Below are positions 1-16,036 of a stretch of 16,036 nt of DNA, piece after piece. Position 1 is the first letter of the stretch; each line of letters begins with the position of its first letter. Location: positions 1-16,036 of IMG/VR virus record IMGVR_UViG_3300012347_000037. The stretch is one strand, 5' to 3'. The DNA comes from a virus. Below the pieces are notes generated by a model. It saw only the letters and a list, made by a program, of their open reading frames with translations. It had not been told where the DNA came from and ran no database searches. The position numbers were made by a program, and so were the translations under genes.

Positions 1-55
1 CGCAAACTTCTTGAATGATTGCATCGCTATAGAGGGAGCCGACACCGAGAGCTGC
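1..55. repeat. Terminal direct repeat, copy 1. It duplicates 15982..16036 exactly and marks circular closure of a 15,981-bp genome.
   Basis: Base-by-base comparison: 'cgcaaacttcttgaatgattgcatcgctatagagggagccgacaccgagagctgc' occurs at 1-55 and again at 15982-16036. A minus-strand ORF is continuous and in frame across the join. Confidence 0.9.
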
Positions 56-85
56 CTTAAGCTCTGTGACTGTACATAGACTCAT
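1..85 (-). CDS. Head-tail adaptor-like protein, 5' part of a junction-spanning gene (start codon at 85..83)
   Basis: ATG at 85..83 is preceded by AAAGGA plus 6 nt. It translates MSLCTVTELKAALGVGSLYSDAIIQEVC and runs off coordinate 1. After removing the duplicated 55 bp it continues in frame at 15981. Total length is 579 nt, 192 aa. Confidence 0.7.
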   Translation of the reverse strand, partial: MSLCTVTELKAALGVGSLYSDAIIQEVC

Positions 86-107
86 TCTCTATCCTTTCAT
101 AAGAGCT

Positions 108-132
108 GGGAGCGAGAAGGGCACTCGCCCCC
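108..132 (-). terminator. Stem-loop just downstream of the capsid gene, possibly a partial terminator or RNA-stabilising hairpin
   Basis: The minus-strand RNA reads GGGGGCGAG-UGCCCUU-CUCGCUCCC, a 9-bp stem with one G.U pair. That pair is an A.C mismatch on the plus strand, so the structure is better in the transcribed sense. The site lies 22 nt after the capsid stop. There is no clear U-tract. Confidence 0.35.
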
Positions 133-153
133 AGCCGTTCTAATGGTTCGCTA

Positions 154-1698
154 TTAAGCGAGGTTGAAGCGACGAACGCCAGCGCCACCCTTAAGAACAC
201 CGATTGCGAGGTATCCGTAAAGAGCGATTTCAAGCTCACCAGATGTGAGTACATTGAGACGGAGCTGTGTAGTTGGTGACTCCCAGACATAGACAGACTC
301 AGGAGCTACGAGGAATGCAGACTCATCTACAATTCCTGATACTGCGATGTTGTGGTCGACGATGAGGTCTGTACCGAGTACGTTACCCATTGCTGACTGT
401 GCAACTACTGCACCTGCAGCGTTGTACTGTGCGCCCTGCGCTGAGTAGAGTGGGCGACCTGTTGTATCTGCGTAGCCTGTGATAGCTGCCCATTGGTCAG
501 TCGAAGCGACGAGCTTGTTAGCGCGGTCTCCGCCTGTGTTCTTGTAAGCTGCTGCAGCTTCTACAGAGATGTATGACTGAAGACCTGCCGCTGTTGCTGC
601 TACACCTGTAGCTGCTGTACCAGAAGCTGTGAACGCTGCGATAAGAGCTGCGTCTGTTGACTTCTCGTAAGCCTTGCGGAGTTCTGTCATGAGGAGATCC
701 ATGAACGCTGGTGATGAGCGGTCAATGAGTTCCCATGAGATACGGTTGATTCCAGCAAACTTATTTACTGTGACTGTATCGTATGTAGATGTCATGCCTG
801 TCTCAGATGGTGCTGCACCCTCGTCTGTGTCTGCAACTGTTGGAGCAGTACCGAGCTTAGGAATTGTGAAAGACATTCCTGAATCTGGGAGAGCGTTACG
901 AGTTACTGCCTCGAACGCTGGGCGTCCTGTGAAAGTAGTTGTAACGAACTGGTTAAGGTGCTGAGGTAGTGTAAGACCTGTGTTAGTTGATGTTGAGTCA
1001 TCCGCTGCACGAACTGTGCGACGTGCCTCGTCATCGCCCATAGCTGCCTTGATAGATGCCTCAAGGTACTGAGCAGATGAGATTGGAGCTGTGCGCTCTT
1101 TGACGTAGTGTGATGCCGCAACTGTTGGGCGAGCCGCTTCGACTGCTGCTGCTTCAACTGCTGGAGCTTCTACCGGTGTAGTGGTTTCTTCCACGACTGG
1201 CTCGCTTTCTGGTTGGGTTGGTTCTGCAGGGATAACTTCCTCTGCAGCAATCTCTAGTACCTGTGCAGACTTGAACGCCGGCTCTGTTACGAGAGAAACT
1301 TCTTTTAACTTAGCCGCTGTTACTACGGTGTGACCGTCACGGCTTGGCTTTGATGCGATGATCTCCGCACCAACTGAGAGACCGCTAACGAGTCCCTCCT
1401 GCGCCTGAATGAGTGCATCGTTACCGCCTGTGGAGCGGGACAACTTAAAGGTTGCATAGATGCCGTCCTGTCGAACCTCTGCCGCTGTCATGCGACCGAC
1501 TGGCTTCTTCATGTCATGCTGGGAGAGGAGTTTAATCTTAGAGATGTCAGTAACGTCGATTGAACCCGCCTCGAAGACAACGCCACCGAGGTTGGTGTTA
1601 CCGATTTCGCCTGTACCCATAGGGACAATCTTGCCTGAGATTTCGCGGCGCTCTTCGCTACATTCTAGAGATGCGGCTTCGATGTATAGGGTTTCCAT
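154..1698 (-). CDS. Fused prohead (HK97-type) protease and major capsid protein
   Basis: 514 aa. The N-terminal ~150 aa carry prohead-protease-like blocks (KLLSQHDMKKPVGR, GLSVGAEI, LKEVSLVTEPAF). An acidic Pro/Glu/Ala linker follows (PAEPTQPESEPVVEETTTPVEAPAVEAAAVEAA). The C-terminal ~300 aa are HK97-fold capsid-like (FAGINRISWELIDRSSPAF...). The ATG overlaps the portal stop (TAATG). Confidence 0.88.
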   Translation of the reverse strand: METLYIEAASLECSEERREISGKIVPMGTGEIGNTNLGGVVFEAGSIDVTDISKIKLLSQHDMKKPVGRMTAAEVRQDGIYATFKLSRSTGGNDALIQAQEGLVSGLSVGAEIIASKPSRDGHTVVTAAKLKEVSLVTEPAFKSAQVLEIAAEEVIPAEPTQPESEPVVEETTTPVEAPAVEAAAVEAARPTVAASHYVKERTAPISSAQYLEASIKAAMGDDEARRTVRAADDSTSTNTGLTLPQHLNQFVTTTFTGRPAFEAVTRNALPDSGMSFTIPKLGTAPTVADTDEGAAPSETGMTSTYDTVTVNKFAGINRISWELIDRSSPAFMDLLMTELRKAYEKSTDAALIAAFTASGTAATGVAATAAGLQSYISVEAAAAYKNTGGDRANKLVASTDQWAAITGYADTTGRPLYSAQGAQYNAAGAVVAQSAMGNVLGTDLIVDHNIAVSGIVDESAFLVAPESVYVWESPTTQLRLNVLTSGELEIALYGYLAIGVLKGGAGVRRFNLA

Positions 1699-2814: not shown

Positions 2815-4236
2815 CTACTCCGAGTAAATCATAGCAGATTGCTGAGGCTTGGAGAGTGTCGAGACAACCATCGCTGTGGCAATAGCGCCAGAGATATCGC
2901 CCGCACTCTTTCGCTTAATGATTCTCCAAGCGGAGTCGTTAGTCTTAGCCGCGCAGTTATTCATCTGTTGAATCCATCCCTCTTGCCCTGAGTGAACCAT
3001 TCTCTTATTGTCGAGGGCATCCTTTAGATCCGTACAGGCTTGATAGAACTGCGCTCCAGAGATGTCGGTGCATACCTGCCCCGCATTGCTGAGACGGTCG
3101 GCGATTGACTGAGTGGCGTAGCGGTCGAAGCCGATAGAACGAGGGCGGTACTGGTCTGCCCAGCCCTTAATATCTGCAGCTATCTTTAACTCGTCTACCG
3201 AGACTTGGCTCTCCCATGTTTGAGCAAGACCAATTCCAACTCGACCATCTGGGAGAATCTGCCCAATAACCAGAGACGCATTGCGACGAGATGGACTGAC
3301 ATCGAAGGCGAATACCGTATAAGCGCCGATTGCCATTTCCAGAGAAGAGTCAGAACACTCTTCGAGACTGCCATGAGTCCACGGAGAAGATAGAGAGTCA
3401 ATCCATTGACATAGGAGTTCCGTGCGGGTGTTCTCAATAGGGCTAGTTGCAACAGCTTCTTCAAGGGCTTCCTCCGTGATCGTATAGCCGAGGGCTGGGT
3501 TAGCTTGCGCCCATCCTGACCGGTCGGTTACTTTGCAATATTGTGGTGCGCTGTACTCGTAGAACCCGAAGGACTTAGGAGGGTTCTCTAGCGCTCGCTC
3601 TCGCATGCCATTAAGGACAAGAGAGAACGCATCTCCTGCGTTAGAAGTGAGTAGTGTCTGAGAGTTCGGTCTAGCTCTAGTCGTAGGGATTGCAGCTCGG
3701 TATCCCTCTTCGTTGACTTCTCGAAGTTCGTCGATGTAGAGGAAGTCTGCAGTACGTCCACGAGATCCATCTCTAGTTGCTGCAACGACATCAAGTCTTG
3801 TCCCATCAAGCATCTCAATGCTCTCAGTTCCGTTCGCGTGTCGTATCTGTTTAACGAAGCCCTTGAGGTGGTCATTACTCTCCAGTACTGAGGCTACTTG
3901 GCGAAAGGTGTCTAACGCCATGGATCTATTAGATGACATTATGAGGATGTTCTTACTGTCCCACTTTAGCAGGTGAGCGAGTATGAGCATACGGGCGAGG
4001 TGTGTCTTACCGTTCTGGCGGGCAATAAGGAGGAGGTTGGTCTTCCTTACCCAGTCACCCTTGGCATCTACCGTGAGCATATCCTTTAGGACGTGTTCCT
4101 GCCATGGGAGTAGAGGCATCTGGATAATCTCACAGAGTTGTTTCACATCTTCGAGCTTGTTCTTACCCTTGAGAGGTATCGAAGAGAGTCTAGGCTTGGT
4201 GACCCCCAAGCGCTTAGTTTTACGCGGTGCAGCCAT
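2815..4236 (-). CDS. Terminase large subunit
   Basis: Walker A-like 'ARQNGKTH', Walker B/catalytic 'ADFLYIDELREV', and a C-terminal nuclease-like half. I prefer the ATG at 4236 (MAAPRKTKRLG...), 4 nt after the HNH stop. The ORF-track start at 4323 is a TTG lying 83 nt inside the HNH gene. Confidence 0.88.
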   Translation of the reverse strand: MAAPRKTKRLGVTKPRLSSIPLKGKNKLEDVKQLCEIIQMPLLPWQEHVLKDMLTVDAKGDWVRKTNLLLIARQNGKTHLARMLILAHLLKWDSKNILIMSSNRSMALDTFRQVASVLESNDHLKGFVKQIRHANGTESIEMLDGTRLDVVAATRDGSRGRTADFLYIDELREVNEEGYRAAIPTTRARPNSQTLLTSNAGDAFSLVLNGMRERALENPPKSFGFYEYSAPQYCKVTDRSGWAQANPALGYTITEEALEEAVATSPIENTRTELLCQWIDSLSSPWTHGSLEECSDSSLEMAIGAYTVFAFDVSPSRRNASLVIGQILPDGRVGIGLAQTWESQVSVDELKIAADIKGWADQYRPRSIGFDRYATQSIADRLSNAGQVCTDISGAQFYQACTDLKDALDNKRMVHSGQEGWIQQMNNCAAKTNDSAWRIIKRKSAGDISGAIATAMVVSTLSKPQQSAMIYSE

Positions 4237-4240
4237 GGGT

Positions 4241-4594
4241 CTATCCGGTGACTGGTCGGGCTGTAAAGGGACTGTTCTGGGGTATCTCCGACCGTGTCGG
4301 GGAGGGAAAGGCAGAAAAATCAAGAGGGGTAGCCATCTGCTCTAAAAAAACACCCTGTGACTTCTTATTCTTCTTGCTATTGCATGGCTTACACGCACTT
4401 ACCATGTTGTTGATATCTATCGCTAACTCTGGTGCTTTGCTTACAGGTATCACATGATCTATGGTCATATCTTTACCCTCATAACCACAGTAGAAGCACA
4501 CCCAACCATCTATTGCTAGCTTCTTGAGTCTTATCTCCTTGTACTTACGGCTAAGGCGTGGGTCACCCTTCTTTGATGCCATGACTACTGCCAT
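4241..4594 (-). CDS. HNH endonuclease (packaging-associated type)
   Basis: Motifs CFYCG...TIDHVIPVS...NNMVSACKPCNSKK, giving an HNH core with two CxxC pairs. It lies immediately upstream of TerL, as in HK97-like cos phages. An alternative start at ATG 4582 has better SD spacing. The C-terminal ~35 aa are Pro/Ser-rich. Confidence 0.88.
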   Translation of the reverse strand: MAVVMASKKGDPRLSRKYKEIRLKKLAIDGWVCFYCGYEGKDMTIDHVIPVSKAPELAIDINNMVSACKPCNSKKNKKSQGVFLEQMATPLDFSAFPSPTRSEIPQNSPFTARPVTG

Positions 4595-5088
4595 CCTTTG
4601 GTGCGTAAGTGATTAAGAGCTGCACAATACATAGGCTCATCATACTCGGTAATACCATACCTATAGGCTACATACTGCCAGTACTTCCAGAACTGTAGCT
4701 CTACATGTGCATTACGCATAGAGGCTATCTTAAGCTGATACAGTCCATAGGCTTGCTTACTACCTCCTATGTTACCTATAGCCTTATCGTTCCATCTTGA
4801 TTCTCTATAGATGATCTCATTATGACACTTATATTCATTATCTGATAATTGCTTATTAGCTACATATTTAACTAAGTCTTTAGATGTACTGAATAGCATT
4901 CTTTGAGAAGCCTCAGTAGGTGTCCCACCTACAGACATAGCTGTGGCAATAACGATTGCGACCCCGCAAGCTAGCGCTTTAAGGCGCTTGCGGTGAGCCC
5001 CTGATGGGCTCTCGCTGGAGAGCTTTAGTGTACCAGTATGGTCAAGGACATTTGTAAAAGTGCTGGTCAGACGGCGTGGCGTTTTCAT
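4585..5088 (-). CDS. Signal-anchored lysozyme-like or lytic-transglycosylase-like protein
   Basis: 167 aa. It has a basic N-terminus followed by a hydrophobic span (LKALACGVAIVIATAMSVGG). The block 'CHNEIIYRESRWNDKAIGN...AYGLYQLK' resembles the (R)ES...N...G(L/Y)xQ(L/I) catalytic signature of SLT/Apf-type muramidases. A strong SD (AAGGAG, N5) precedes the ATG. Confidence 0.5.
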   Translation of the reverse strand: MKTPRRLTSTFTNVLDHTGTLKLSSESPSGAHRKRLKALACGVAIVIATAMSVGGTPTEASQRMLFSTSKDLVKYVANKQLSDNEYKCHNEIIYRESRWNDKAIGNIGGSKQAYGLYQLKIASMRNAHVELQFWKYWQYVAYRYGITEYDEPMYCAALNHLRTKGWQ

Positions 5089-5109: not shown

Positions 5110-5123
5110 TGTGGATAACTATC
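5110..5123 (-). promoter_or_regulatory. DnaA box 1: perfect TTATCCACA on the minus strand, inside a 14-bp repeat unit
   Basis: The plus strand reads TGTGGATAACTATC. Bases 5110-5118 are the reverse complement of TTATCCACA. The site is intergenic. Confidence 0.6.
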
Positions 5124-5130
5124 CATCAAA

Positions 5131-5144
5131 TGTGGATAACTATC
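5131..5144 (-). promoter_or_regulatory. DnaA box 2: perfect TTATCCACA on the minus strand, second exact copy of the 14-bp unit
   Basis: The identical 14-mer TGTGGATAACTATC lies 21 bp from copy 1, about two helical turns. Its last 5 bp overlap the stop codon of the FmdB-like gene. Confidence 0.6.
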
Positions 5145-5331
5145 TATTGTCGGTAGAGTAGAACCCTGTCCCCTTAAATACGGCTGCAGGTACAGAGCTA
5201 TAGACCTTGTGCATAGGCTCTCCGCAGAAGGGACAGTCCACATCATGAGGCTCATGGATGGCGAGCTTATGATCTAGTATCGCCGTGGACTCGCAGTCCT
5301 CATTACGGCATTGAAACTCATAGGTTGGCAT
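5140..5331 (-). CDS. FmdB-family (CxxC_CxxC_SSSS-type) zinc-ribbon protein
   Basis: 63 aa, MPTYEFQCRNEDCES...CPFCGEPMHKVYSS...FKGTGFYSTDNR. The opener, the two Cys pairs and the 'GxGFY.TD' tail are characteristic of this family. Confidence 0.8.
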   Translation of the reverse strand: MPTYEFQCRNEDCESTAILDHKLAIHEPHDVDCPFCGEPMHKVYSSVPAAVFKGTGFYSTDNR

Positions 5332-5755
5332 TATCGAGCTTCTCGCATATGTGACAAGGTGAACCCTCCATAATCGTATTACCGCAAGTGCAGTAGATAG
5401 GCTCTAAGTTTACCGTGTCTTTCTGGAAATCTGTGTAACCTGCCTTAATAAGTAATGAGACAAGGTCGCTGAACTTTAAGAAGCTTAGATACTCCGCCGC
5501 ATCCTCGCCCTGTCCATTCATACGGCACACAACCACATTAAGCTCGTGGTTCTTCTCTGTGCGCTTACGACCTTGCCTCATCCACTCCATGGGATTGAAG
5601 TCGCTTCTCGCTTTGACTTCTATATCTATCGGGATATTCACGATATCTTTCCCATTACCGCGCCCTACCGTAGCCCCAGACCAATAGCGGCTGAGATACT
5701 CGGCTACTACTCGTTCCGTCCTGAATCCACGGTGTTTGCGGTGTTGAGATGGCAT
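5318..5755 (-). CDS. PD-(D/E)xK nuclease, Holliday-junction-resolvase-like, with a C-terminal zinc ribbon
   Basis: 145 aa. 'GFRTERVVAEYL...GKDIVNIPIDIEVKAR' fits an E...D...E-x-K archaeal-Hjc-like or phage resolvase pattern. The C-terminus carries CTC-x9-CHIC. Confidence 0.5.
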   Translation of the reverse strand: MPSQHRKHRGFRTERVVAEYLSRYWSGATVGRGNGKDIVNIPIDIEVKARSDFNPMEWMRQGRKRTEKNHELNVVVCRMNGQGEDAAEYLSFLKFSDLVSLLIKAGYTDFQKDTVNLEPIYCTCGNTIMEGSPCHICEKLDNANL

Positions 5756-5763
5756 AGTCTGAT

Positions 5764-6018
5764 CTACGCCTTCCCAGTACTAGTTATAGCATGACACTTA
5801 GGACATGACCAGCTAAAGCCATGTTTATAAGTGCCGCCAGTAATCATAATCTGTTCCATCGGGAATGGCTCGTTGCATAGGTGGCAGACGGTAGTAATCT
5901 CTGGATGTACCGCAGGGACTAGAGTGCCGTCCTTAGCATCTTGGAGAATCTCAAGCTCCTCATCGCTGGGAAACTTCTCCCATTCGCCATCTTGATTCTT
6001 GAACTCTATGTGTCCCAT
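5764..6018 (-). CDS. Small zinc-ribbon protein of unknown function
   Basis: The ORF-track ORF is 5764..6072. I prefer the ATG at 6018 (MGHIEFKNQDGEWEKF...), 4 nt after the upstream stop, giving 84 aa. It contains CHLC-x23-CPKC. No function is recognisable. Confidence 0.55.
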   Translation of the reverse strand: MGHIEFKNQDGEWEKFPSDEELEILQDAKDGTLVPAVHPEITTVCHLCNEPFPMEQIMITGGTYKHGFSWSCPKCHAITSTGKA

Positions 6019-6022
6019 GTCA

Positions 6023-6706
6023 TTACCACTTATTCTCTTGTCGACCCCATGAGCCGTTTGGTTTGATTTCATACCAGATTACATCCTTACAGGCGAAGCA
6101 AGAGAAGTTACCCCATGGCTTCTTAGTCTTAGCAGATACTCCGGTCTTCCATGTCATGTCCTTACGGTCATGGCACTTAGAGCACTTAGGGATATCCCGC
6201 TCTGTCTGCCCTCCGATAATGTCCTTAACGATTGAGACTGCCTCGTCTACTGTAGCCGGTGGCTTTGTAGCTGTGAGAGTCCATGGATCTGCCTCGTTAA
6301 CTACTGGCACATAAGTTGAGCCGGTCTGACTCATCTTTGCCTTAGCCTCTTCGATAGCGTTCTGAGCTGCAGACTTAGCGGCTACCTTGCTCATCTCTTC
6401 TCGCGTAGGGCGTTTCCCTTTCGTAGCATAGCCAGCGTTAGCCAGCGCTCTACCAATACTAGACGTCTCGCAATTCTCCAGAGCGGACGTAGCATTAACG
6501 CCTCGCCCTTGGACAGTCTCCTCTGCAAGCCCAGTTGCCCAAGGTGCAGAATCATCACTCTTGCGATATACAGAACTTCCAACGATAAATCGAGAAGGCG
6601 ATGCCTCCAGTAGTTTCGTCTCAATACGCCCATCTGGGTTATCCTTCCAGAACTTAGTTAGTCGCTCTTCAACTGTCTCGTAATCATCTAGGTTAAAGTG
6701 CGCCAC
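6023..6706 (-). CDS. Putative Rad52/Sak-like single-strand annealing protein with a C-terminal zinc ribbon
   Basis: 227 aa, GTG start with AAGGAG-N9. 'TVEERLTKFW..NPDGRI' and 'SALENCETSSIGRALANAGY' resemble the Rad52/Sak blocks (..RL..FG..GW.. and ..A.KEAETDA.KRAL..FG). The C-terminus carries CSKC-x24-CFAC. The functional call is tentative. Confidence 0.45.
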   Translation of the reverse strand: MAHFNLDDYETVEERLTKFWKDNPDGRIETKLLEASPSRFIVGSSVYRKSDDSAPWATGLAEETVQGRGVNATSALENCETSSIGRALANAGYATKGKRPTREEMSKVAAKSAAQNAIEEAKAKMSQTGSTYVPVVNEADPWTLTATKPPATVDEAVSIVKDIIGGQTERDIPKCSKCHDRKDMTWKTGVSAKTKKPWGNFSCFACKDVIWYEIKPNGSWGRQENKW

Positions 6707-7380: not shown

Positions 7381-7454
7381 TTTTGCCCTTTCCGTAGTCC
7401 GTATTTCGTCTACGGGATGAACTTTACCTTAGGGCTGGTCGGTGCCTAGTATAT

Positions 7455-7487: not shown

Positions 7488-7508
7488 TCCTCGTCCTCGA
7501 AGTAAGGG

Positions 7509-9256: not shown

Positions 9257-9545
9257 AGAGCGCCTCGCATTCTGGACATTCCCAGCGCTTTAAGTCGTTA
9301 AGAAATAATGATTCATGCCCGCAATCAAACATAGGCGCAATAAACGCATCGTCGATAGGGTCATAGGTATAACCGACACCAGCAAAGTTAAACCGAATGC
9401 GGTTGTTGTAGCTTGTCTGTAACCAAGTGCCGCCAAGGTTATTGACTAGCCACGAATAGCCCTCATCGCCTGCTGCGTCATTATTGTCTCCAACGAGTAC
9501 GCGAATTACTTTATTGTTTTCGTCAATTTCTGCCCAATGACTCAT
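9237..9545 (-). CDS. Conserved phage protein of unknown function (tail-module associated)
   Basis: 102 aa, MSHWAEIDENNKVIRVLVGD...GGTWLQTSYNN...GVGYTYDPIDDAFIAP. This resembles a widespread small phage family often found beside tail-fibre genes. The C-terminus has CGH...CPEC. The ATG overlaps the upstream stop (ATGA). Confidence 0.65.
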   Translation of the reverse strand: MSHWAEIDENNKVIRVLVGDNNDAAGDEGYSWLVNNLGGTWLQTSYNNRIRFNFAGVGYTYDPIDDAFIAPMFDCGHESLFLNDLKRWECPECEALYEANSL

Positions 9546-10405
9546 ACTGGATACCTCACAATAATAAAGCCGCCCGCGCCGTTACCGCCGCCTGATCCGC
9601 CACCGCCACCACCGCCGGAGCCTGTAGTCGCTGTTGCGTTGTTAGCGGGTGCAAAGTTGGAGAAGTTACCCGCTCCACCTAGTCCACCTAAACCTTGTGT
9701 GAATGGTGCAGTAGCATCTCTACCGCCACCGCCGCCTGCGATGTAACCTGCAACGCCTAAGCCGACAACTGTTAGCCAAGATGACCAAGTGTTTAAGCCA
9801 TCGCCGCCGTTTTGTGTTGTTCCGTTACCCGCTCCAGCTCCACCACCGCCGCCACCGCCGGGGTTAATTACATTGCTTGCAAAACCGTAACCAGTTGCCC
9901 CGCCTGTATTTCCTTGGGTAGTAGCTCCTCGGGTTCCAGCATCGGTAGAACCACCGCCTGAACCGCCTGAACCGCCGTTGACGTTTCCGCCACCTGCAGC
10001 ACCTGCACCGTATCCACCACCGTCGGATGTAATAGTGTCAAATATTGAACTTGTTCCAGCTGTACCGCTTCCAGTACTTCCAGAACGACCAGCTCCACCA
10101 CCGCCGATTGTTAGAGAATAACTTCCAACAGATACAGACCGACCAGCCTGATAGGAAACTCCACCAGCTCCGCCTCCACCTGCTCGGGTTCCAGCTGTCA
10201 TGTCAGCGCCACCACCACCGCCACCTGCAACAACTAAAACATCGCAAGAGAGAGCAGCATTACTTACTCCAAGGGTTCCGTTGCTAGTAAAGAGTCTGTA
10301 ATTGTAACCGCCCGAGGTAAACAGAGTTCCACCTGTAACGGTTGCAACTGCTGCATTAGGTGATAAAACGGAGGTAACTACGTTAAGCAATTGCGCCCAC
10401 CACAT
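9542..10405 (-). CDS. Glycine-rich minor tail or fibre-like protein
   Basis: ~287 aa from ATG 10405. It has the 'YNYRLFTSNGTLGV...CDVLVVAGGGGGG' opener, long GGxGG tracts and the 'GGFIIVRYPV' ending typical of phage glycine-rich-domain tail proteins. The ORF-track start at 10510 lies 128 nt inside the previous gene in another frame. The true start is uncertain because no strong SD is present. Confidence 0.7.
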   Translation of the reverse strand: MWWAQLLNVVTSVLSPNAAVATVTGGTLFTSGGYNYRLFTSNGTLGVSNAALSCDVLVVAGGGGGGADMTAGTRAGGGGAGGVSYQAGRSVSVGSYSLTIGGGGAGRSGSTGSGTAGTSSIFDTITSDGGGYGAGAAGGGNVNGGSGGSGGGSTDAGTRGATTQGNTGGATGYGFASNVINPGGGGGGGAGAGNGTTQNGGDGLNTWSSWLTVVGLGVAGYIAGGGGGRDATAPFTQGLGGLGGAGNFSNFAPANNATATTGSGGGGGGGSGGGNGAGGFIIVRYPV

Positions 10406-10766
10406 ACCAAGAGTTGGCAGCCACCTGAATGAAAGCTGCTGACTTGTACTGGTTAAGAACAGGGCTTGCAGATGTAGCACCTGCAGAGGCAACAGTAACG
10501 CCACCTGCACCTGAGATAGTTACCGCTCCCGCGCCCTTATTAAGCACGGTTATGACGGTGCCAACTGGGAAGGCTACGGATGCGTTGGTGGGAATTGTAA
10601 GAGTAGATGCGCCCGCGTTAGATCGTGTGATGAGAACCTGATACTGGTCGGTAAGGACAGGGGTGTAGCTTGTGCCTGTCTGGTCATTGAGGGTAAAGGC
10701 TACTAAGCCGTTAGCAGCTGAGGCGGTGAGGATGTCACCGGTTGAGAAGGGAAAGCCTGTTGCCAT
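10383..10766 (-). CDS. Minor tail protein (small, beta-rich)
   Basis: 127 aa. 'FSTGDILTASAANGL' resembles the F..G..LTA..LN opener seen in actinophage-type minor tail proteins. It lies between the Dit-like and glycine-rich genes. Confidence 0.6.
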   Translation of the reverse strand: MATGFPFSTGDILTASAANGLVAFTLNDQTGTSYTPVLTDQYQVLITRSNAGASTLTIPTNASVAFPVGTVITVLNKGAGAVTISGAGGVTVASAGATSASPVLNQYKSAAFIQVAANSWYVVGAIA

Positions 10767-10775: not shown

Positions 10776-12020
10776 CTAGTAGCCGAGCATATTAACGCCA
10801 ATTATACCGTAGGTTGAGCTTCCAATGATGAAGCCCTCCGCTATTGGTTCAAGGGTCGTTACTGTTGCGGTCATTTTGTTTGGTGTGATATCCCACGCTA
10901 TGCCTTGGCATTGGAGGGTCTTTACAATAGTCGAGCCATCAGGCTGGACATTAGTAATCTTGAGATTGTCGAAGTAGTCCAACGCAATCATCGTGTCAGT
11001 TGGCACGGAAGTATCGAGTAGATCTACAACCATTTCGTCAATGCGGATGGTTGTTTCCTTACGGGTAGCTACATATTCCTTAGCGATGTTCAGGACAATA
11101 GCGTCGGTCTCTGCGACTAGGTTGTCTTGGCTAATGCCGTGAGGGAAGTACTTGTTAACCGAGTCTGTGTCGCTGACTGTCTGAGCTGCACCGCCTACGC
11201 GGGTAAAGGTGGCTTGGTTGATAATGAGCTTGTCATCGAATGAGTACTTGAGATTCTTATAAGGGATGCCTGTGGTCTGGTTAAACTCGATGGCTGTATC
11301 ACCAAGGGATGACATCACCTGAGTGCGGCTCTTGAATACTGCCGTGCCTGAACCGTCCATATAGAAGGCGCCAGTCTCGGAGAACTCTGCGTTCTTGAGG
11401 GCTTCAAGTGATGTTCGAGCTGTGCCCGGGTCAGCGACGCAGGTGTTAAGCCCTGTCCCTACGGTTCTCATGGAGCTAGGGAAGGAGACCTGATCTAGTA
11501 TCTTGCCAATGCGTGTGCCGGTATCTTGCCCAGCTGTTGCATCTGTGATGGTCTGAATGTTAGCCATCTGGAAGAGACGGAACCCATCGGTGCAAACGAG
11601 GTCGACGTAGCCTGTCTCTTGCCCTTGAGGGTAAGTATACTTATAGTCGGTGACATATCCTGAGAATAGGAACTCCTCAGCTGTGGCAGTAGTGGCAGAA
11701 ATGCGTACCTTGCGTAGAGGGCTCAGGTAGCCGTAGTAAGGCGATGAGGTGTTCTGAGGGTTAAAGTATGAGAGAGGGTCTAGGACGCGCACAGTAGCCG
11801 TTCCTGCCTCGTATTGGTCACGCTGGATTGAGCGACCACGGCGAATAGCAATCTGGTACACATCAGGAGTTAAGTCAACAGTAGGCAGGATGACATCTGA
11901 TTCACCGAGACGCGATACTCCGATAACACCGTACTTGGCATCGCCGACCACAAAACCGGTCCCGAAGGTCGCTCCGGAGGAGAAGTCGAAGCTAACGGCT
12001 ATCTGTGCTGGTAATGCCAT
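10776..12020 (-). CDS. Distal-tail (Dit)-like minor tail protein
   Basis: 414 aa, immediately after the tape measure (TAATG overlap). 'IAIRRGRSIQRDQYEAGTATVRVLDPLSYFNPQN' matches the RGR...aGTAT..L.N...fdP pattern of siphophage distal tail proteins. Confidence 0.65.
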   Translation of the reverse strand: MALPAQIAVSFDFSSGATFGTGFVVGDAKYGVIGVSRLGESDVILPTVDLTPDVYQIAIRRGRSIQRDQYEAGTATVRVLDPLSYFNPQNTSSPYYGYLSPLRKVRISATTATAEEFLFSGYVTDYKYTYPQGQETGYVDLVCTDGFRLFQMANIQTITDATAGQDTGTRIGKILDQVSFPSSMRTVGTGLNTCVADPGTARTSLEALKNAEFSETGAFYMDGSGTAVFKSRTQVMSSLGDTAIEFNQTTGIPYKNLKYSFDDKLIINQATFTRVGGAAQTVSDTDSVNKYFPHGISQDNLVAETDAIVLNIAKEYVATRKETTIRIDEMVVDLLDTSVPTDTMIALDYFDNLKITNVQPDGSTIVKTLQCQGIAWDITPNKMTATVTTLEPIAEGFIIGSSTYGIIGVNMLGY

Positions 12021-13537
12021 TATCCGAACATTCCAGAGATGCGACCAATGTCAGACTTCTTACCTGCTAGAGAGTTGTAGTTCAGACCGTTTTGAACTGC
12101 AAGAACTAGATCCTGCTCTGATAGTACGGAACCGTTTACGGTGATGTATACATCTCCCGCTGCGTTAGAACCTGCGCTACCTCCGCCACCTGCTACAAGG
12201 CTCTGGACCGTAGGGGTAAGAGTTGCAAATGATTCACCGCGGGTGCTTGAAGTACCGGTAGCACCGAACGCGGCAGCCAATCTTGCCTTCTCAATGATCA
12301 TGTCAAGATAGCTAGACCAAGCAGCAAAGGGATTAGCGGCTGGTTTGAGACTGGCTAGTTCGTTGGCTAACTGAATGCCTAAGCCCTGAGCCAAGGCAAT
12401 CTCTTTAGTCAGGCGCTGAGCTTCTGTCACATTATCTGTCAATATCGCTAGTTGCAACAAAGCCCGCTTACGATCTTCCTCTGACAAGTCACCCTTAAGA
12501 GCAGCAATAAGGTTGGCTTGCTCAAGGTCGAAAAGGGAGCCCGCCTTCTTCAAAGCTGCTTGCTTCTTCTGTTCTGCAGTCAATGCCTTCTGAGCTTTAA
12601 GAGCTGCTGCGTTTTGCTTTTTGCGGTCTGCTTCTATTTGAGCAAGTAATTTAGAATACTTCAAATATGGGTCTTCTGGCTTTGGCTTTGTAGTAGAGCC
12701 GCCACCGGAAGGGATGCCGGTGGGGTTGAACTTACTGAGTAGACCATTCGCGCCAGTAATATCAAAAAGACCAAACAGAGTTTCTTTACCTGCAGCAATA
12801 AACTCAAGTCCTCTGCCAATTTTATCGAGAGTCCAAGCCAAAACATTTAATTTAGCTCCTTCTGAGCCGTCACCAAATGAGGCAAGAGTAAGAAGGGTGG
12901 CGCCTACGCGCTCTTGGAAATTACCCCATGCAAGAGATAAGACCCCGACCTGTCCTGAATATGTGGAAAGGTAAGCAGCTGACGATCCAGCGAACTGGTC
13001 GTTCATAATCTTTTGAATCTCGCTAAAAGATTTAGCCTGTAGAGTGGCATTAGATAGACCGAGGTAATACTTTCGAAGTCCCTTGGTGTTTCCGATGTAT
13101 GCCTGAGCAAGGTCGTTGCTGACCTGAGCAAGTGAATAGCCACTTCCGCGAGATGCCTCAATAGCGGTTGCTAGGATGGATTGAGATGCGGCTAATGATC
13201 CGGTTTGAGTTAATAGAGACTGGAAAGCAGGACGGAGCTCATCGTCTGCGACCTTAGTCATCTCCTCCATCTTGGAGATGTAGTCGGCGATGTAAGGATT
13301 AGCAAACTCCATGCCAAGGTTCTTAACTGCTAGAGATAGTTTAGTAGCAGCTGCCTCATCTGCAATAAAGGCGTTAATAGATGCTTTAGCAAATGCAGTA
13401 CCCGCCGCTGCTGTGACAGCAAAGCCCAGCCCTAAGTTCTTGACCTGCTTGTTTAACCTAGCTGCTGCTGTTTCGGCTTTCTTGAATCCTCTAGTGTCGG
13501 CTTTGGAGCCAATCAGGATTTCTTCTCTTACTGCCAT
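12020..13537 (-). CDS. Tape measure protein
   Basis: 505 aa, Ala/Leu/Lys-rich with coiled-coil stretches (AALKAQKALTAEQKKQAALKKAG). It occupies the canonical position after the chaperone genes and before the Dit-like gene. At ~0.15 nm per residue this predicts a tail of roughly 75 nm. Confidence 0.85.
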   Translation of the reverse strand: MAVREEILIGSKADTRGFKKAETAAARLNKQVKNLGLGFAVTAAAGTAFAKASINAFIADEAAATKLSLAVKNLGMEFANPYIADYISKMEEMTKVADDELRPAFQSLLTQTGSLAASQSILATAIEASRGSGYSLAQVSNDLAQAYIGNTKGLRKYYLGLSNATLQAKSFSEIQKIMNDQFAGSSAAYLSTYSGQVGVLSLAWGNFQERVGATLLTLASFGDGSEGAKLNVLAWTLDKIGRGLEFIAAGKETLFGLFDITGANGLLSKFNPTGIPSGGGSTTKPKPEDPYLKYSKLLAQIEADRKKQNAAALKAQKALTAEQKKQAALKKAGSLFDLEQANLIAALKGDLSEEDRKRALLQLAILTDNVTEAQRLTKEIALAQGLGIQLANELASLKPAANPFAAWSSYLDMIIEKARLAAAFGATGTSSTRGESFATLTPTVQSLVAGGGGSAGSNAAGDVYITVNGSVLSEQDLVLAVQNGLNYNSLAGKKSDIGRISGMFG

Positions 13538-14139
13538 TATGCTGCGCTCCTAAGTGCTGCTCTCGCGGCTTCGGCTCTAAATTGTGTTAATGCTTTATCT
13601 ATTGCTCGCATGGTTGCGCCTTCTGCCATGCCTCTGTTCTCAGCCCAAGCGCGATAGATAAGACGTCCGCGACCTTTAAGGCTTGATACCAATGGAGGAA
13701 GTTCTGAGATGAACTGCTTACCCGCTTGTGGGTTATTTGACTTGCTCACTTGGTTGCTCTTGCTTCCGGCTTTAGGACCAACCCAAGGCTGACCCTGTAA
13801 ACCGTTGCGTCCTGCGCTCTCATAGATAGCTCCCACGCGGCTACGGTTCTCAATACGAGCCATGGAGCTAAATCCGTTGGAGTTAATCTTGCTAGGTGTA
13901 GTGCTGTAAGTGATCCCAGATTTAATAGTCGAGGCATTAAATGTTGGGAACTTTCCTTCTGAAAAGGAACGACCAGCCCAGCCCCGCATCGGAGATTCCG
14001 CAGGAACAAATCCTTTAGCTTCTCTTACTACAGGGCGAAGGGCAGCCGTGATTTCCTTCTTCAAAGCCTTCTCTAAGTCAGGAGTGAAGCGACGCATTGC
14101 TTTACGAAGGTCAGCGTTTCCGCGTATTTCTATTCGCAT
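13537..14139 (-). CDS. HK97-gp10-like tail or neck protein in an atypical position
   Basis: 200 aa with SD GAAGGAG. The N-terminus 'IEIRGNADLRKAMRRFTPDLEKALKKEITAALRPVVREAKGFVP' resembles the opening of HK97 gp10-family proteins. Its stop overlaps the tape-measure ATG (TAATG). The functional call is tentative. Confidence 0.4.
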   Translation of the reverse strand: MRIEIRGNADLRKAMRRFTPDLEKALKKEITAALRPVVREAKGFVPAESPMRGWAGRSFSEGKFPTFNASTIKSGITYSTTPSKINSNGFSSMARIENRSRVGAIYESAGRNGLQGQPWVGPKAGSKSNQVSKSNNPQAGKQFISELPPLVSSLKGRGRLIYRAWAENRGMAEGATMRAIDKALTQFRAEAARAALRSAA

Positions 14140-14535
14140 TCTCTCGCTCCTTCGCTAGGTCGTTTAACACTTCTATGTGAGCCTTAAACGCCATAGGCGA
14201 TAGGTTCACTATTGACTCAAACGGAACCCCGTACTCATACGATAGACGAGCTGCCGTATAAGTAACGGAGTTCCGATCTAGCCTAAAGGGGAAGACTCTA
14301 AGACCTCGACCCCTTGCAACATCTCGACGAACTTATCCCCAAAAGGAGGAACTGTTTCTCCGCCGCGCTTCATGGCTTCCCAGCAAAGGAAAAATACATC
14401 CGATTGCTTCTGGTCTTCCATAAGGCTCTTGTGAAAGCCCTTACCAGTATGCTGCTCGAAAGCGTACTCGTGGATAGGGAGTATCTCGTACTCTCTAACC
14501 TCGCCATTAGTCTTTGTGATTTTTAGTTTTGCCAT
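14111..14535 (-). CDS. Tail assembly chaperone, -1 frameshift product (GT-like, ~141 aa)
   Basis: Hand translation shows the -1 frame is open from the slip site for 57 codons (RLDRNSVTYTAARLSYEYGVPFESIVNLSPMAFKAHIEVLNDLAKERENANRNTRKR) to the TGA at 14113..14111. This exactly fills the otherwise unexplained 138-bp gap at 14140-14277. Confidence 0.65.
14278..14535 (-). CDS. Tail assembly chaperone (G-like, zero-frame product)
   Basis: 85 aa, directly downstream of the major tail gene. It ends 6 nt after a canonical slippery heptamer. Confidence 0.7.
   Translation of the reverse strand: MAKLKITKTNGEVREYEILPIHEYAFEQHTGKGFHKSLMEDQKQSDVFFLCWEAMKRGGETVPPFGDKFVEMLQGVEVLESSPLG
14284..14290 (-). other. 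Programmed -1 ribosomal frameshift slippery heptamer C CCT TTA
   Basis: The minus strand reads ...TC C CCT TTA GGC TAG. The X XXY YYZ phasing is correct in the chaperone zero frame, two codons before its stop. Confidence 0.65.
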
Positions 14536-14558: not shown

Positions 14559-14993
14559 TTAGAATGTGCCTGTTTCAGTCTTTGTTACGCCACCTGAGAC
14601 GTTAAAGGAAACGCTCTGTGTGCTTAGATCGCCAACAGCGCCGTTAATAGGGGTGATGTTATTGACCAAAACGAGACCTGTCCAGAATGGGTTAGCAGCT
14701 GAGCCAGATGCTGACTTGTCGTTAGCTACCTTGAAATATACGTTCTTCCCAAGTAGTGAGTTAAGCGTCTGGAGAACTGCGTTTGAACCGTTGTCGTTGA
14801 TAAATTCAATAGTCAATGTTGAAGTCTCAAGTCCTGCAATCTGACGTACACCTGTATCGCCCATCGCTGTAACTGGGATTTCTTCAAAGCTGCGGTTGAG
14901 CGTAAAAGATGTGCAATACGCGCTAAGGTCGATAGATGCTGGGTCAGTTTCGCCGAGCTTGACGCCGACCTTGTTGTTAATGAATTGTGCCAT
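14559..14993 (-). CDS. Major tail (tube) protein
   Basis: 144 aa, beta-rich, with SD AAGGAAG. It lies immediately upstream of the chaperone/frameshift pair. The call is mainly positional. Confidence 0.65.
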   Translation of the reverse strand: MAQFINNKVGVKLGETDPASIDLSAYCTSFTLNRSFEEIPVTAMGDTGVRQIAGLETSTLTIEFINDNGSNAVLQTLNSLLGKNVYFKVANDKSASGSAANPFWTGLVLVNNITPINGAVGDLSTQSVSFNVSGGVTKTETGTF

Positions 14994-14994
14994 G

Positions 14995-15093
14995 TTATTC
15001 TTCTTCCTTCTTTGTCGGTGTTGCTGGCTTTGTTACTTCTGGCTTGACTTGACCAATACGCTCAAGCCATTCTGCATTTGACTTATCAGTCAT
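14995..15093 (-). CDS. Hypothetical 32-aa protein (below the ORF-track cut-off)
   Basis: The ATG at 15093 lies 2 nt after the upstream stop, with GGAG 8 nt upstream. It translates MTDKSNAEWLERIGQVKPEVTKPATPTKKEEE and fills the gap before the major tail gene. It could equally be an untranslated leader. Confidence 0.3.
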   Translation of the reverse strand: MTDKSNAEWLERIGQVKPEVTKPATPTKKEEE

Positions 15094-15095
15094 AT

Positions 15096-15491
15096 CTAGC
15101 TCCATTCTGTTAAGCATTGAATTGCAATGTCGCAAGTCAATAAATCGCCTGACGGAACAGTCATAACGCTGGGAGCGCTGACTGAACCTAATTTAAAGTT
15201 AATAGATGAGGCACATAGAAGATTAAATACACGGACTACGTCAGCCTCAATGCCAGCCAAATTACCTTGGTTATCCAAGAGTGGGACTAGGATTTGAACC
15301 CGGAAGTTAGCCATTGGTGAGATGGTGTTCTGCATATTGTTGTTCGGTTCGAGGTATGGATCCGCTGGAGTGATGATGATTGAATTCGGAATCGGGCTCG
15401 CTGGTGGGAAGCTGAATACCTGATAGAGGCTGTTGTCTACCAGAGCCGTAGCGATAGTTGACCGGAGAGTAGTTATCGCAGTCATGCTCAA
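15096..15491 (-). CDS. Head-tail joining or tail-terminator-like protein (DUF3168-like pattern)
   Basis: 131 aa. 'ITTLRSTIATALVDNSLYQVFSFPPASPIPNSIIITP' resembles the opening of DUF3168/gpU-like tail completion proteins. The ATG overlaps the adaptor stop (ATGA). Confidence 0.45.
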   Translation of the reverse strand: MSMTAITTLRSTIATALVDNSLYQVFSFPPASPIPNSIIITPADPYLEPNNNMQNTISPMANFRVQILVPLLDNQGNLAGIEADVVRVFNLLCASSINFKLGSVSAPSVMTVPSGDLLTCDIAIQCLTEWS

Positions 15492-16036
15492 CCAACCATA
15501 CTGTTCGGGTCGATATACGGCGAAATAAGTCCGCGAATGCGGCTTAGAAGCTGAGAGGACATCGCATAGAATAAACCCATAGATCCATCGGGAGCCATGC
15601 CGTTGCCTGAGTTAGCTTGACGAGCTTGCCAGATAGACTCGGCAACCATAAGGGCTGCCTCCTGAATTGCTGGGACTGTAGAAGGGTCGAGATAAGTCTC
15701 TGCAGCTACTACGCCGTAAGGGTTGACAGGATGGTAAACGGTTGCGGTGTTGTTGTTACCTGAGATGGCGTAAGTGATTGAATACTCGCCTACCTCTGTG
15801 ATGGTCTTGCTGCCGTTATGTTTAGATCCCATTCCTGAGATGACCACAGTCTGGCCTACATAGAATACGTCCTTAGTAGGCTCATCAAAATAGGTAGTGC
15901 CTGTGTTGGTGGTATTGCTATGACCAACTCCGAAAGAATTGTTAGCCCATATGAAAGGGAGCAGGGCGTTATCTGCCGCGGCGCAAACTTCTTGAATGAT
16001 TGCATCGCTATAGAGGGAGCCGACACCGAGAGCTGC
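15488..16036 (-). CDS. Head-tail adaptor-like protein (gp6/gp15-type), 3' part of the junction-spanning gene
   Basis: The ORF track starts this ORF at an internal GTG (15847), but the frame stays open to the window edge (...AAADNALLPFIWANNSFGVGHSNTTNTGTTYFDEPTKDVFYVGQTVVISGMG...). The N-terminal 'TELKAALGV' opener and the C-terminal helices 'AALMVAESIWQAR...LLSRIRGLISPY' resemble phage adaptors. It sits directly downstream of the capsid gene. Confidence 0.65.
   Translation of the reverse strand, partial: AALGVGSLYSDAIIQEVCAAADNALLPFIWANNSFGVGHSNTTNTGTTYFDEPTKDVFYVGQTVVISGMGSKHNGSKTITEVGEYSITYAISGNNNTATVYHPVNPYGVVAAETYLDPSTVPAIQEAALMVAESIWQARQANSGNGMAPDGSMGLFYAMSSQLLSRIRGLISPYIDPNSMVG
15982..16036. 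repeat. Terminal direct repeat, copy 2 (identical to 1..55)
   Basis: Same 55-mer as the window start. The length fits an assembler k-mer overlap. Confidence 0.9.

Follow-up and report, generated by a model that had tools for sequence, protein, structure and literature searches.

The window examined here is the whole of IMG/VR record IMGVR_UViG_3300012347_000037 (16,036 nucleotides). Comparison across the entire window showed bases 1–55 to be identical to bases 15982–16036, and removal of this exact 55-bp end repeat leaves a circle of 15,981 bp, the size given by an earlier sequence-only reading; the join is crossed in frame by a 192-aa gene. The record is classed in IMG/VR as having direct terminal repeats, and its CheckV completeness is 100%. 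Every credible gene lies on the minus strand, to which all features below belong, and the ten longest plus-strand ORFs gave no Pfam match, in agreement with the single-strand organization proposed earlier. A single late operon of ~11.6 kb encodes a transglycosylase-like protein, an HNH endonuclease, the large terminase (TerL), portal, a protease-capsid fusion, neck proteins, tail tube, G/GT chaperones, tape measure, four tip or fibre proteins, a lysin, and holins. It is followed by a conserved 73-aa protein and then a metallophosphoesterase, and a 2.4-kb early block carries a Rad52/Sak-type annealing protein, a PD-(D/E)xK resolvase-like nuclease, a DUF6378 protein, and three further small proteins, zinc-ribbon or unknown.

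The first gene after a pair of DnaA boxes encodes a signal-anchored, lytic-transglycosylase-like protein of 167 aa (4585–5088; phrog_35836, E 7e-10), which also matched PF01464 (E 1e-3) and NF052397 (E 2e-6), both below cut-off. The 117-aa HNH endonuclease (4241–4594; PF01844, E 2e-12, with matches to many HNH PHROGs) ends 4 nt ahead of the TerL ATG at 4236. TerL (473 aa; 2815–4236) matched phrog_9 (E 3e-70) as well as PF03237, PF20441, and PF03354, and is 79 to 94% identical to its relatives. Portal (366 aa; 1698–2798) was recognized by PF04860 (E 9e-31) and phrog_12 (E 1e-40). Prohead protease, linker, and HK97-type major capsid protein form one 514-aa fusion (154–1698; phrog_2263, E 1.5e-66), with PF04586 on residues 45 to 148 and PF05065 on residues 242 to 429; among cultured phages it comes closest to actinophage cluster AN, whose “major capsid and protease fusion” proteins are 41% identical to it in the protease part. 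The 192-aa protein that wraps the junction (5′ end at 1–85, then 15981–15488) is a head-tail adaptor candidate by position, with 54 to 80% identity in relatives and no family match in Pfam or PHROGs. A 131-aa neck candidate (15096–15491; head closure or tail terminator), likewise placed by position, gave no family match and is kept in 63 related loci.

Among the tail genes, the 144-aa major tail tube protein (14559–14993) matched phrog_4574 (E 2e-23). The tail assembly chaperones G (85 aa; 14535–14278) and GT (14111–14535) are joined by a canonical −1 slippery heptamer, C_CCT_TTA, at 14290–14284, past which the −1 frame has no stop for another 59 codons, the T frame running to 14111. CCCTTTA is exact in 46 of 52 relatives, five others have an X_XXY_YYZ variant in its place, and relatives encode a homologous T-frame peptide, consistent with the G/GT pair that had been proposed from the sequence. 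Between GT and the tape measure lies a 200-aa tail-completion or neck candidate (13537–14139), assigned by position and by phrog_5 (“tail completion or Neck1”; residues 1–81, E 1e-4), which is kept in 49 loci and had no match in a profile search of PDB sequences. The 505-aa tape measure (12020–13537) is identified by its position after G/GT, without a Pfam or PHROG match; its counterparts in relatives span 512 to 544 aa, and from its length the tail is estimated at roughly 75 nm. There follow a 414-aa distal tail or tail-tip protein (10776–12020; phrog_5313, E 5e-24; 67–91% identity to relatives), a 127-aa minor tail or fibre-domain protein (10383–10766; phrog_8780, “minor tail protein,” E 7e-16; phrog_16053, “tail fiber”), a glycine-rich fibre-like protein (9542–10405; PF21722, E 1e-17; phrog_2295, E 2e-35), and a 102-aa tail-module protein with a Cys cluster (9237–9545; phrog_7759, function unknown, E 1e-22). 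The start of the glycine-rich gene is uncertain, the ATG at 10405 being likely; in relatives it is swapped for divergent Gly-rich or other fibre genes, and its product is a candidate for a variable receptor-binding protein.

The candidate endolysin (147 aa; 8813–9256) was assigned from a LAS-type zinc-peptidase motif and its position directly preceding two small membrane proteins. H36, D42, H43, H120, H123, and H125 (H36...D42; H123-x-H125) are invariant in 22 relatives, and neither a Pfam nor a PDB sequence match was obtained. The two single-pass membrane proteins (48 and 61 aa; 8484–8812) are holin candidates by position and hydrophobic segments, and other 47- to 49-aa membrane proteins occupy this slot in relatives. 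The full siphovirus-type kit with lysis cassette described previously is thus present: TerL, portal, protease-capsid, major tail protein, and fibre match families, and the tape measure, the adaptor, the 131- and 200-aa neck/tail proteins, the holins, and the lysin are assigned by position or motif. This kit is conserved across the family.

Two proteins of the early block are candidates for a role in DNA metabolism. A 227-aa protein (6023–6706) has a Rad52/Sak-type single-strand annealing fold followed by a C-terminal zinc ribbon. A 145-aa protein (5318–5755), also ending in a zinc ribbon, plausibly resembles a PD-(D/E)xK nuclease and is a candidate Holliday-junction resolvase, judging from phrog_244 (E 3e-9), invariant E14, D37, D44, E46, and K48, and a PDDEXK_15 lead in a protein atlas (score 0.88). 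Together with the calcineurin-type metallophosphoesterase (250 aa; 7509–8261; phrog_221, E 1e-57) and the HNH endonuclease, these are the candidates that the sequence-only reading had named, and each was upheld, the resolvase as plausible. The remaining small early genes encode an FmdB-type zinc-ribbon protein (63 aa; 5140–5331; TIGR02605, E 1e-8, above cut-off; PF09723), a zinc-ribbon protein of 102 aa, or 84 if the second Met is the start (5764–6072; CxxC...CxxC in translation; 34–63% identity in relatives), two accessory ORFs of 58 and 51 aa (6693–7008), and the DUF6378 protein (91 aa; 6992–7267; PF19905, E 3e-20). Of 13 relatives compared, none has a homologue of the 58-aa ORF, whose GC3 (0.31) is the lowest, and three have the 51-aa ORF, which was seen in 7 related loci overall. 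Two additions to the earlier gene list are a 38-aa membrane protein gene (7264–7380), with homologous ORFs of 47 to 62 aa in relatives, and a doubtful 45-aa ORF (7424–7561). The latter overlaps the largest gap without a firm gene (7381–7508), in which CGTTACC occurs twice, 11 bp apart. Both copies of CGTTA(T/C)C are clear in 19 of 20 relatives carrying the region (in the remaining one, the second copy alone could be confirmed), and this gap may serve as an early promoter/operator or as an origin element; a sigma-70 scan was uninformative. The conserved 73-aa protein (8258–8479), delineated in an 18-sequence alignment, has a basic N terminus and two helices, and its disordered tail terminates in IPYEDDEDE. 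Its AlphaFold model (pLDDT 73.5) places helices at residues 10 to 33 and 37 to 45, and no significant fold or sequence match was found, PDB included.

Searches with three HMM libraries (Pfam, PHROGs, and NCBIfam) detected no polymerase, helicase, primase, initiator, small terminase (TerS), integrase, or repressor in the window, and AlphaFold models built for the two ORFs under most suspicion suggested no replication, TerS, or lysogeny function either. To the extent that these libraries and the two models can recognize such functions, the genome is without them, as had been noted at the outset. Neither tRNAs nor Rfam families were detected in the window, and the only extra genes of recognized function in relatives are C5 and N6 DNA methyltransferases. 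The best overall explanation, to which we assign a probability of about 80%, is a complete family genome lacking recognizable replication genes, replicated by the host and processed as concatemers by recombination. The host replisome would perform all DNA synthesis, initiated through a host factor for which DnaA at a conserved box pair is the best candidate; the annealing protein and resolvase would then drive recombination-dependent replication and concatemer processing, and HNH and TerL may cut and package concatemers without a separate small subunit. In phage 80alpha, neither replication nor the formation of concatemers proceeds without Sak annealing proteins (PMC5499656).

Could functions be missing because of a partial or chimeric assembly, or because the contig is a satellite relying on a helper phage? 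Its 55-bp overlap may be a de Bruijn-graph k-mer overlap, which it resembles, rather than a physical terminal repeat, and misassembly was seen in some relatives. Yet three closed relatives, assembled independently from other samples (15,558, 16,168, and 16,568 bp), share the gene order and gene set of the window. Among the best 80 of 563 IMG/VR relatives, two artefacts aside, contigs do not exceed ~17.5 kb, and the longest contigs carrying a homologue of the 227-aa protein are 16 to 18 kb. Of two apparently larger relatives, one (32.3 kb) was rejected as a head-to-tail dimer with two TerL copies and the other (19.65 kb) as a contig holding an inverted tape-measure/tail-tip fragment. The window carries genes for head, neck, tail, fibre, and lysis alike and so needs no virion parts from a helper, and neither integrase nor helper-sensing genes were found in it. 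A partial, chimeric, or helper-dependent contig is therefore highly improbable, and the window is the whole ~16.0-kb genome of a virulent-type siphovirus belonging to a very large uncultured family. A less remote alternative, which we nonetheless consider unlikely, is that “lacking” means “not recognizable” and that the genome's own initiator, helicase loader, or TerS hides among small conserved proteins: the 73-aa protein, the FmdB-type and other zinc-ribbon proteins, the DUF6378 protein, or the 45-aa ORF. Several small proteins are strongly conserved family-wide with no assigned function, six to eight depending on whether the 200- and 131-aa virion candidates are counted with the 73-, 45-, 38-, 102-, and 63-aa and DUF6378 proteins. 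The predicted basic arm, helical hairpin, and acidic tail of the 73-aa protein would be compatible with a minimal DNA-binding oligomer, the family-wide CGTTA(T/C)C pair implies some sequence-specific DNA-binding protein, and the cultured small phage RRH1 is annotated with a TerS. Against this, the profile libraries gave no match to such a function, the 73-aa protein matched no PDB sequence or fold, and hhalign probabilities for it were below 1% against RRH1 TerS and cluster AN genes 1 and 2, none of which it resembles. The candidates are all too small for a helicase, primase, or polymerase domain, and the HNH-TerL interval, the usual place of TerS, holds no gene.

A feature pertinent to host-run replication is a pair of exact consensus DnaA boxes, TTATCCACA, at 5118–5110 and 5139–5131 (region 5110–5144), found by sequence scan in the 51-bp gap ahead of the late operon, at the early/late boundary. 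Each box lies inside an exact 14-bp repeat, GATAGTTATCCACA, with a spacing of 21 bp, and the two exact boxes observed compare with 0.10 expected by chance. Relatives carry 5.55 boxes per kb in the same region versus 0.14 per kb elsewhere (~39-fold), and 10 of the 13 loci compared among relatives contain boxes. Since they are absent from the other three, in which the spacer is deleted, they cannot be an indispensable origin. Their recurrence, not universal, fits use of the host initiator, and in the small-genome relatives of the only metagenome-assembled genome (MAG) carrying a family member, dnaA is flanked by clusters of TTATCCACA. The boxes could instead be a regulatory or DNA-entry device, with replication primed by transcription or recombination alone; this reading is a serious one, to which we give somewhat less than even odds. 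It could take the form of a DnaA-dependent early/late transcription block or switch, or of a genome-entry pause as proposed for the T5 injection-stop region, and the conserved DnaA boxes of T5-like phages were judged unrelated to replication (bioRxiv 10.1101/866236). The boxes sit exactly at the early/late boundary, with the ribosome-binding site of the first late gene following them directly, and three of the 13 relatives dispense with them; both observations are consistent with such a role. No clear unwinding element adjoins them: the nearest AT-rich island is ~250 bp off, inside a gene, the most AT-rich 40 bp of the genome being 4819–4858 in the transglycosylase-like gene. The island recurs in all nine relatives compared and may be compositional, and cumulative GC skew does not point to the box site. 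On the other hand, the boxes persist across lineages in two different arrangements beside a flanking gene that is only 30 to 60% identical, so DnaA binding itself seems selected, which fits an origin or a regulatory role. Four cultured small actinophages are without such boxes, which argues that these are not needed for a small-genome lifestyle generally.

The nearest cultured relatives of TerL, portal, and capsid are almost all actinophages, and a search of species-representative genomes gave a single match, on a contig of 15.9 kb binned with a freshwater MAG of 1.4 Mb labelled “uncultured actinobacterium.” From this distant homology and the one binned contig, the hosts of the family are most likely small-genome freshwater Actinobacteria. 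The sequence-only reading had ranked the genome among the smallest of long-tailed phages, at ~14 to 17 kb, which holds against the published range of 14,270 to 19,679 bp for 109 small actinophages (bioRxiv 10.1101/2022.02.05.479200). Small actinophages of the same architecture and without replication genes have been published (PMC5513430, PMC7302621, bioRxiv 10.1101/2022.02.05.479200), as have freshwater “miniphages” of ~15 kb (Kavagutti 2019, PMC6802176). Phages of 14 to 19 kb with this build and these missing functions are thus already described, and the window adds a member to their number. Known members of the class include Rhodococcus phage RRH1 (14.3 kb) and actinophage clusters AN, EE, and CW; with these and the miniphages, the present lineage shares only TerL, portal, and the protease-capsid fusion, at 22 to 41% identity, and with Kaijohn alone it also has the HNH endonuclease in common, within the same range of identity.

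Bases 1-55 of the window are identical to bases 15982-16036, leaving a 15,981-bp circle of unique sequence, and IMG/VR classes the record as one with direct terminal repeats (CheckV completeness, 100%). A 192-codon minus-strand gene crosses the circle join with its reading frame open throughout. About 29 plausible genes are encoded, every one on the minus strand; none of the ten longest ORFs of the plus strand matched Pfam, and neither tRNA genes nor Rfam matches were found in the window. Family searches of Pfam, PHROGs, and NCBIfam identified the large terminase TerL (phrog_9, E 3e-70), the portal (PF04860, E 9e-31), a prohead protease and HK97-type capsid fused in one 514-aa ORF (PF04586 plus PF05065; phrog_2263, E 1.5e-66), the major tail protein (phrog_4574, E 2e-23), a tail-tip protein (phrog_5313), a protein with a minor-tail or fiber domain (phrog_8780), a glycine-rich fiber-like protein (PF21722), a metallophosphoesterase (phrog_221, E 1e-57), a DUF6378 protein, an FmdB-type zinc ribbon (TIGR02605), an HNH endonuclease (PF01844), and a signal-anchored transglycosylase-like protein (4585-5088; phrog_35836). 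The 505-aa tape measure (equivalent to a tail length of roughly 75 nm), the adaptor, and a 131-aa protein were assigned by position and conservation only, as was a 200-aa protein that additionally displayed a weak phrog_5 match. A canonical -1 frameshift heptamer (C_CCT_TTA) is present at 14290-14284; the 85-codon G gene stops just past it, and the -1 frame remains open for 59 codons beyond. Of 52 relatives, 46 retain the exact heptamer CCCTTTA and 5 more have an X_XXY_YYZ variant (CCCTTTG, CCCAAAA), and we take the predicted G/GT chaperone pair to be real. The module for a long tail is complete, with tube, tape measure, and G/GT frameshift. A 147-aa lysin candidate (8813-9256) exhibits invariant His/Asp residues patterned as in LAS zinc peptidases, and two single-pass membrane proteins are encoded downstream of it. 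When family alignments of the 73-, 145-, 147-, 200-, and 227-aa proteins were searched as profiles against PDB sequences, no significant match was returned. The full siphovirus kit on one strand of ~16 kb, as proposed in the sequence-only reading, is borne out by the closed circle, the family matches, and the frameshift site.

The same reading had recognized no replication, small terminase (TerS), or lysogeny genes, and the three HMM libraries were likewise empty of them: no polymerase, helicase, primase, initiator, TerS, integrase, or repressor family was matched in the window. Helix-turn-helix proteins, present in cultured small actinophages, were not detected in any part of the genome. The 73-aa protein (8258-8479), for which structure prediction had been proposed, is conserved at 47-89% identity in the family, and its model shows two helices and, after them, a disordered acidic tail; no sequence or fold match was found for it, nor any relation to the TerS of phage RRH1 or to the small genes upstream of the terminase in actinophage cluster AN. 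The absence of replication, TerS, and lysogeny genes stands in the sense that none is recognizable, six to eight small conserved proteins being without assignment and two small proteins (73-aa and 227-aa) having been modeled. Neither the profile searches nor these two models revealed an initiator, primase, or TerS. Each of four consecutive early proteins (window 5140-6706) contains a CxxC...CxxC zinc ribbon. The 73-aa protein ends in IPYEDDEDE, and a doubtful 45-aa ORF (7424-7561) includes PYFEDEDP; the two may have in common a short Pro-Tyr-acidic motif for docking to one partner.

When the fused capsid gene was used as a query, 563 related IMG/VR contigs were retrieved, with 80-99% identity of the fused capsid protein in the best 80 of the 563. 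Three relatives closed independently through 119-127-bp overlaps, at 15,558, 16,168, and 16,568 bp, and agree with the window in gene order and almost entirely in gene set. The longest contigs with the 227-aa protein reach 16-18 kb at most, and a more distant relative, a 15.9-kb contig, retains the same order at about 50-65% protein identity. As the relatives are the same in size, order, and content, the small genome and the missing functions are properties of the family rather than of one assembly. The identifiable extra genes of relatives are methyltransferases, either C5 cytosine (L049:2146-3084) or Dam-type (L041:2540-3019), neither of which is encoded in the window; other differences comprise exchanged small membrane proteins, a few small unassigned ORFs, and alternative fibers. 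The methyltransferase genes of these two relatives sit between the FmdB-type and transglycosylase genes, adjoining the DnaA-box region. Two records that seemed to be larger relatives were rejected: a 32,321-base record (L022) contains two TerL copies and represents two variant genomes in tandem, and a 19,650-base record (L025/L094) terminates in an inverted 3.1-kb fragment of the tape-measure/tail-tip region. CheckV scores both misassembled records at 100%, and IMG/VR lists both as "complete." The possibility of a chimeric or incomplete contig, raised in the sequence-only reading, is countered by the shared order of the closed relatives and by the artefactual nature of the larger records; the observation of a near-minimal genome is confirmed, and its interpretation is supported. 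A 58-aa ORF (6832-7008) had no homologue among 13 relatives compared. Its GC3 (0.31) is the lowest in the genome, and the ORF was probably acquired recently.

With TerL as the query, 2,024 phage records were matched, overwhelmingly actinophages, and with the fused capsid 199 records, almost exclusively from small phages of Arthrobacter, Microbacterium, Gordonia, and Rhodococcus. The sole match among 185,579 species-representative genomes was a 15.9-kb contig in a 1.4-Mb freshwater "uncultured actinobacterium" MAG, the nearest genomes of which are 1.1-1.4 Mb with dnaA regions of about 46% GC; the phage family has a GC content of 47-49%. Neither whiB, tRNA, nor CRISPR evidence pointed to an actinobacterial host. 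The distant homologues and the one binned contig point to, without proving, a host among streamlined freshwater Actinobacteria.

Two exact TTATCCACA consensus DnaA boxes, spaced by 21 bp, were found at 5110-5144 on the minus strand, within the 51-bp gap from the FmdB-type gene to the transglycosylase gene and directly upstream of the first late gene. Each box lies within an exact 14-bp direct repeat, and 0.10 exact boxes would be expected by chance in the whole window, as compared to the 2 observed. In relatives, the density of boxes (one mismatch allowed) was 5.55 per kb in this region and 0.14 per kb elsewhere, arranged as a tandem pair or as an inverted pair plus one further box. Boxes were present in 10 of 13 relatives and missing in the remaining three (L006, L014, and L038), where the spacer is deleted; conservation of the predicted sites thus does not extend to every relative. 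No such box was found in four cultured small actinophages. The small-genome relatives of the phage-carrying MAG contain clusters of the same consensus box around dnaA; dnaA itself was not found in the MAG, which is incomplete.

The most AT-rich 40 bp of the genome (4819-4858; GC 0.20) lie about 250 bp downstream of the DnaA boxes, inside the transglycosylase gene. All 9 relatives compared likewise have their most AT-rich stretch, or one tied for it, in this gene, at shifting positions and with the protein only 30-60% identical. The island may be an unwinding or packaging element, or it may simply reflect the codon composition of the gene, whose GC3 is somewhat low (0.40). GC skew did not clearly mark an origin across these 16 kb, which are coded on one strand, and a promoter/terminator scan was uninformative, with fewer sites than in shuffled sequence. 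A further non-coding element consists of two CGTTACC copies, 11 bp apart, at 7455-7487 on the minus strand, within the gap that follows the phosphoesterase gene (7381-7508). Both copies of the CGTTA(T/C)C pair are clear in 19 of 20 relatives with the region; in the other (L010), only the second copy was confirmed. The pair is contained within the doubtful 45-aa ORF. It is speculation that this spacing, a 9-mer plus 2 bp, resembles arrays of weak DnaA sites.

A 227-aa protein (6023-6706), modeled from a 46-sequence alignment (pLDDT 82), has an alpha-beta-beta-beta-alpha core (pLDDT about 97) followed by a long helix, a disordered linker, and a C-terminal zinc ribbon. The core includes the beta-beta-beta-alpha DNA-binding fold of Rad52/Sak type, and on this model the protein is predicted to be an annealing protein, not an initiator. 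No Rad52/Sak sequence family was matched in Pfam, NCBIfam, or PDB sequences, the sole family match being to phrog_11717, of unknown function. The N-terminal domain occurs in 4,362 representative clusters at 50% identity. Many different C-terminal extensions follow this domain among its members (P0123-P0272), and 8 of 46 sampled members matched PF25690 (mycobacteriophage L5/D29 gp49). The reference for this fold is the Sak single-strand annealing protein of staphylococcal phage 80alpha (PDB 8pq8, 8qe9), a member of the Rad52 superfamily. In contrast to Sak, the present domain belongs to a separate large family (labeled PF27148 in the protein database), carries the added zinc ribbon, and is encoded with no cognate SSB gene adjoining. 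A 145-aa protein (5318-5755) matched phrog_244, labeled Holliday-junction resolvase (E 3e-9), and exhibits invariant E14, D37, D44, E46, and K48, as in PD-(D/E)xK nucleases; a protein atlas lead was likewise to PDDEXK. The Rad52/Sak-like protein and resolvase-like nuclease suggested from sequence alone therefore agree, respectively, with the fold model, albeit with no sequence-family match, and with the phrog_244 match, invariant residues, and atlas lead.

The TerS gene is normally located just upstream of TerL. In the window, the stop codon of the HNH gene (4241) is only 4 nt from the TerL start (ATG at 4236), so there is no gene at the usual TerS position between them. No TerS family was matched in any library searched; the sole "small terminase" row was that of the HNH protein to phrog_4581, an HNH-domain match. 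In HNH-assisted cos packaging of the HK97 type, the HNH protein gp74 acts with TerS and TerL. The window is similar in that its HNH endonuclease gene directly adjoins the large terminase and portal genes, but differs in having neither a TerS gene nor intergenic room for a cos site between HNH and TerL. Packaging apparently has no need of TerS.

We infer that the host replisome would carry out all DNA synthesis, that host DnaA acting at the boxes would be the leading candidate for initiation or control of initiation, and that the annealing protein and nuclease would support recombination-dependent replication and concatemer processing, a role shown for Sak in phage 80alpha (PMC5499656). These steps may be combined into a joint reading in which the phage would have no initiator of its own, two to three consensus DnaA boxes beside the most AT-rich segment would form a miniature host origin that loads the host replisome, the annealing protein and resolvase would make concatemers, and HNH and TerL would package them without TerS. 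As a whole this combination is unlikely, with a probability of roughly 0.2; if true, it would describe a tailed phage that retains nothing beyond genes for the virion, lysis, and recombination. Alternatively, the boxes may act in transcription or in DNA entry, the kind of role proposed for those of T5. Conserved DnaA boxes are found in the first-step-transfer region of T5-like phages (bioRxiv 10.1101/866236) and, as in the present family, are paired consensus or one-mismatch boxes that are non-coding and kept across the phage family. However, T5 encodes replication functions itself and has its eight boxes arranged as inverted repeats (bioRxiv 10.1101/866236), whereas in the present family no replication genes are recognizable and the boxes, two or three in number, sit where early and late genes meet.

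The phage family is very common in metagenomes (563 related contigs in IMG/VR, and protein clusters in the thousands), and the bacteria that it probably infects rank among the most abundant in fresh water. It illustrates how little a long-tailed phage needs: about 29 genes, none recognizable as serving replication, packaging recognition, or lysogeny. The DnaA boxes, annealing protein, and resolvase are testable handles on how small actinophages start and complete DNA replication, a question open in the literature, and the DnaA boxes, the universal 11-bp-spaced repeats, and apparently TerS-free packaging are the most promising leads. The overall picture of phage biology is unchanged, as the 14-19 kb architecture and, since 2019, freshwater "miniphages" were already known.

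Descriptions of 14-19 kb genomes built in this way date back to 2012; the genome of Rhodococcus phage RRH1 has 14,270 bp. The range of about 14-17 kb given in the sequence-only reading fits published small actinophages, which extend from 14,270 bp to below 19.7 kb. Cluster AN of Arthrobacter (Decurrovirus) has genomes of 15.3-15.6 kb (PMC5513430), cluster EE of Microbacterium about 17.4 kb (PMC7302621), and 109 small actinophage isolates fall below 19.7 kb (bioRxiv 10.1101/2022.02.05.479200). [quoted passage not shown] By their annotations, four cultured records (Toulouse, RRH1, Kaijohn, and McGonagall of Gordonia cluster CW) share the architecture of the window, which has both the protease-scaffold-capsid fusion and the genome size under about 20 kb of the small-phage class. 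In the cultured phages and the window alike, HNH is next to the terminase in the circular map, and often a single "terminase" is annotated. Three of the four (Toulouse, RRH1, and Kaijohn) have no polymerase, helicase, primase, or integrase; McGonagall, unlike these, is temperate, with an annotated "DNA polymerase III subunit" and a polynucleotide kinase. TerL, portal, and fused capsid are common to the window and all four phages, and HNH is shared with Kaijohn only, at 22-41% identity, so that 3-4 of about 29 genes are shared with any cultured phage compared. A megablast comparison of the complete genome with 50,697 phage records gave no nucleotide match. With shared gene content below about 35% and no nucleotide similarity to cluster members, the window falls outside the named clusters AN, EE, and CW and the RRH1 singleton. 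It differs further in GC content (about 49%, versus about 60% in Toulouse), in an HNH gene that directly abuts TerL with no small gene upstream, in DnaA boxes that the four cultured phages lack, and in an early block comprising a recombination kit (annealing protein, nuclease, and phosphoesterase), where cultured phages have helix-turn-helix regulators. In freshwater metagenomes, complete tailed-phage genomes show a pronounced peak at about 15 kb; these "miniphages" include predicted actinophages (Kavagutti et al. 2019, PMC6802176). The present family is like them in size, with one binned relative in a freshwater actinobacterial MAG. The lineage of the window is a new, probably family-level, member among the small actinophage-like siphoviruses.
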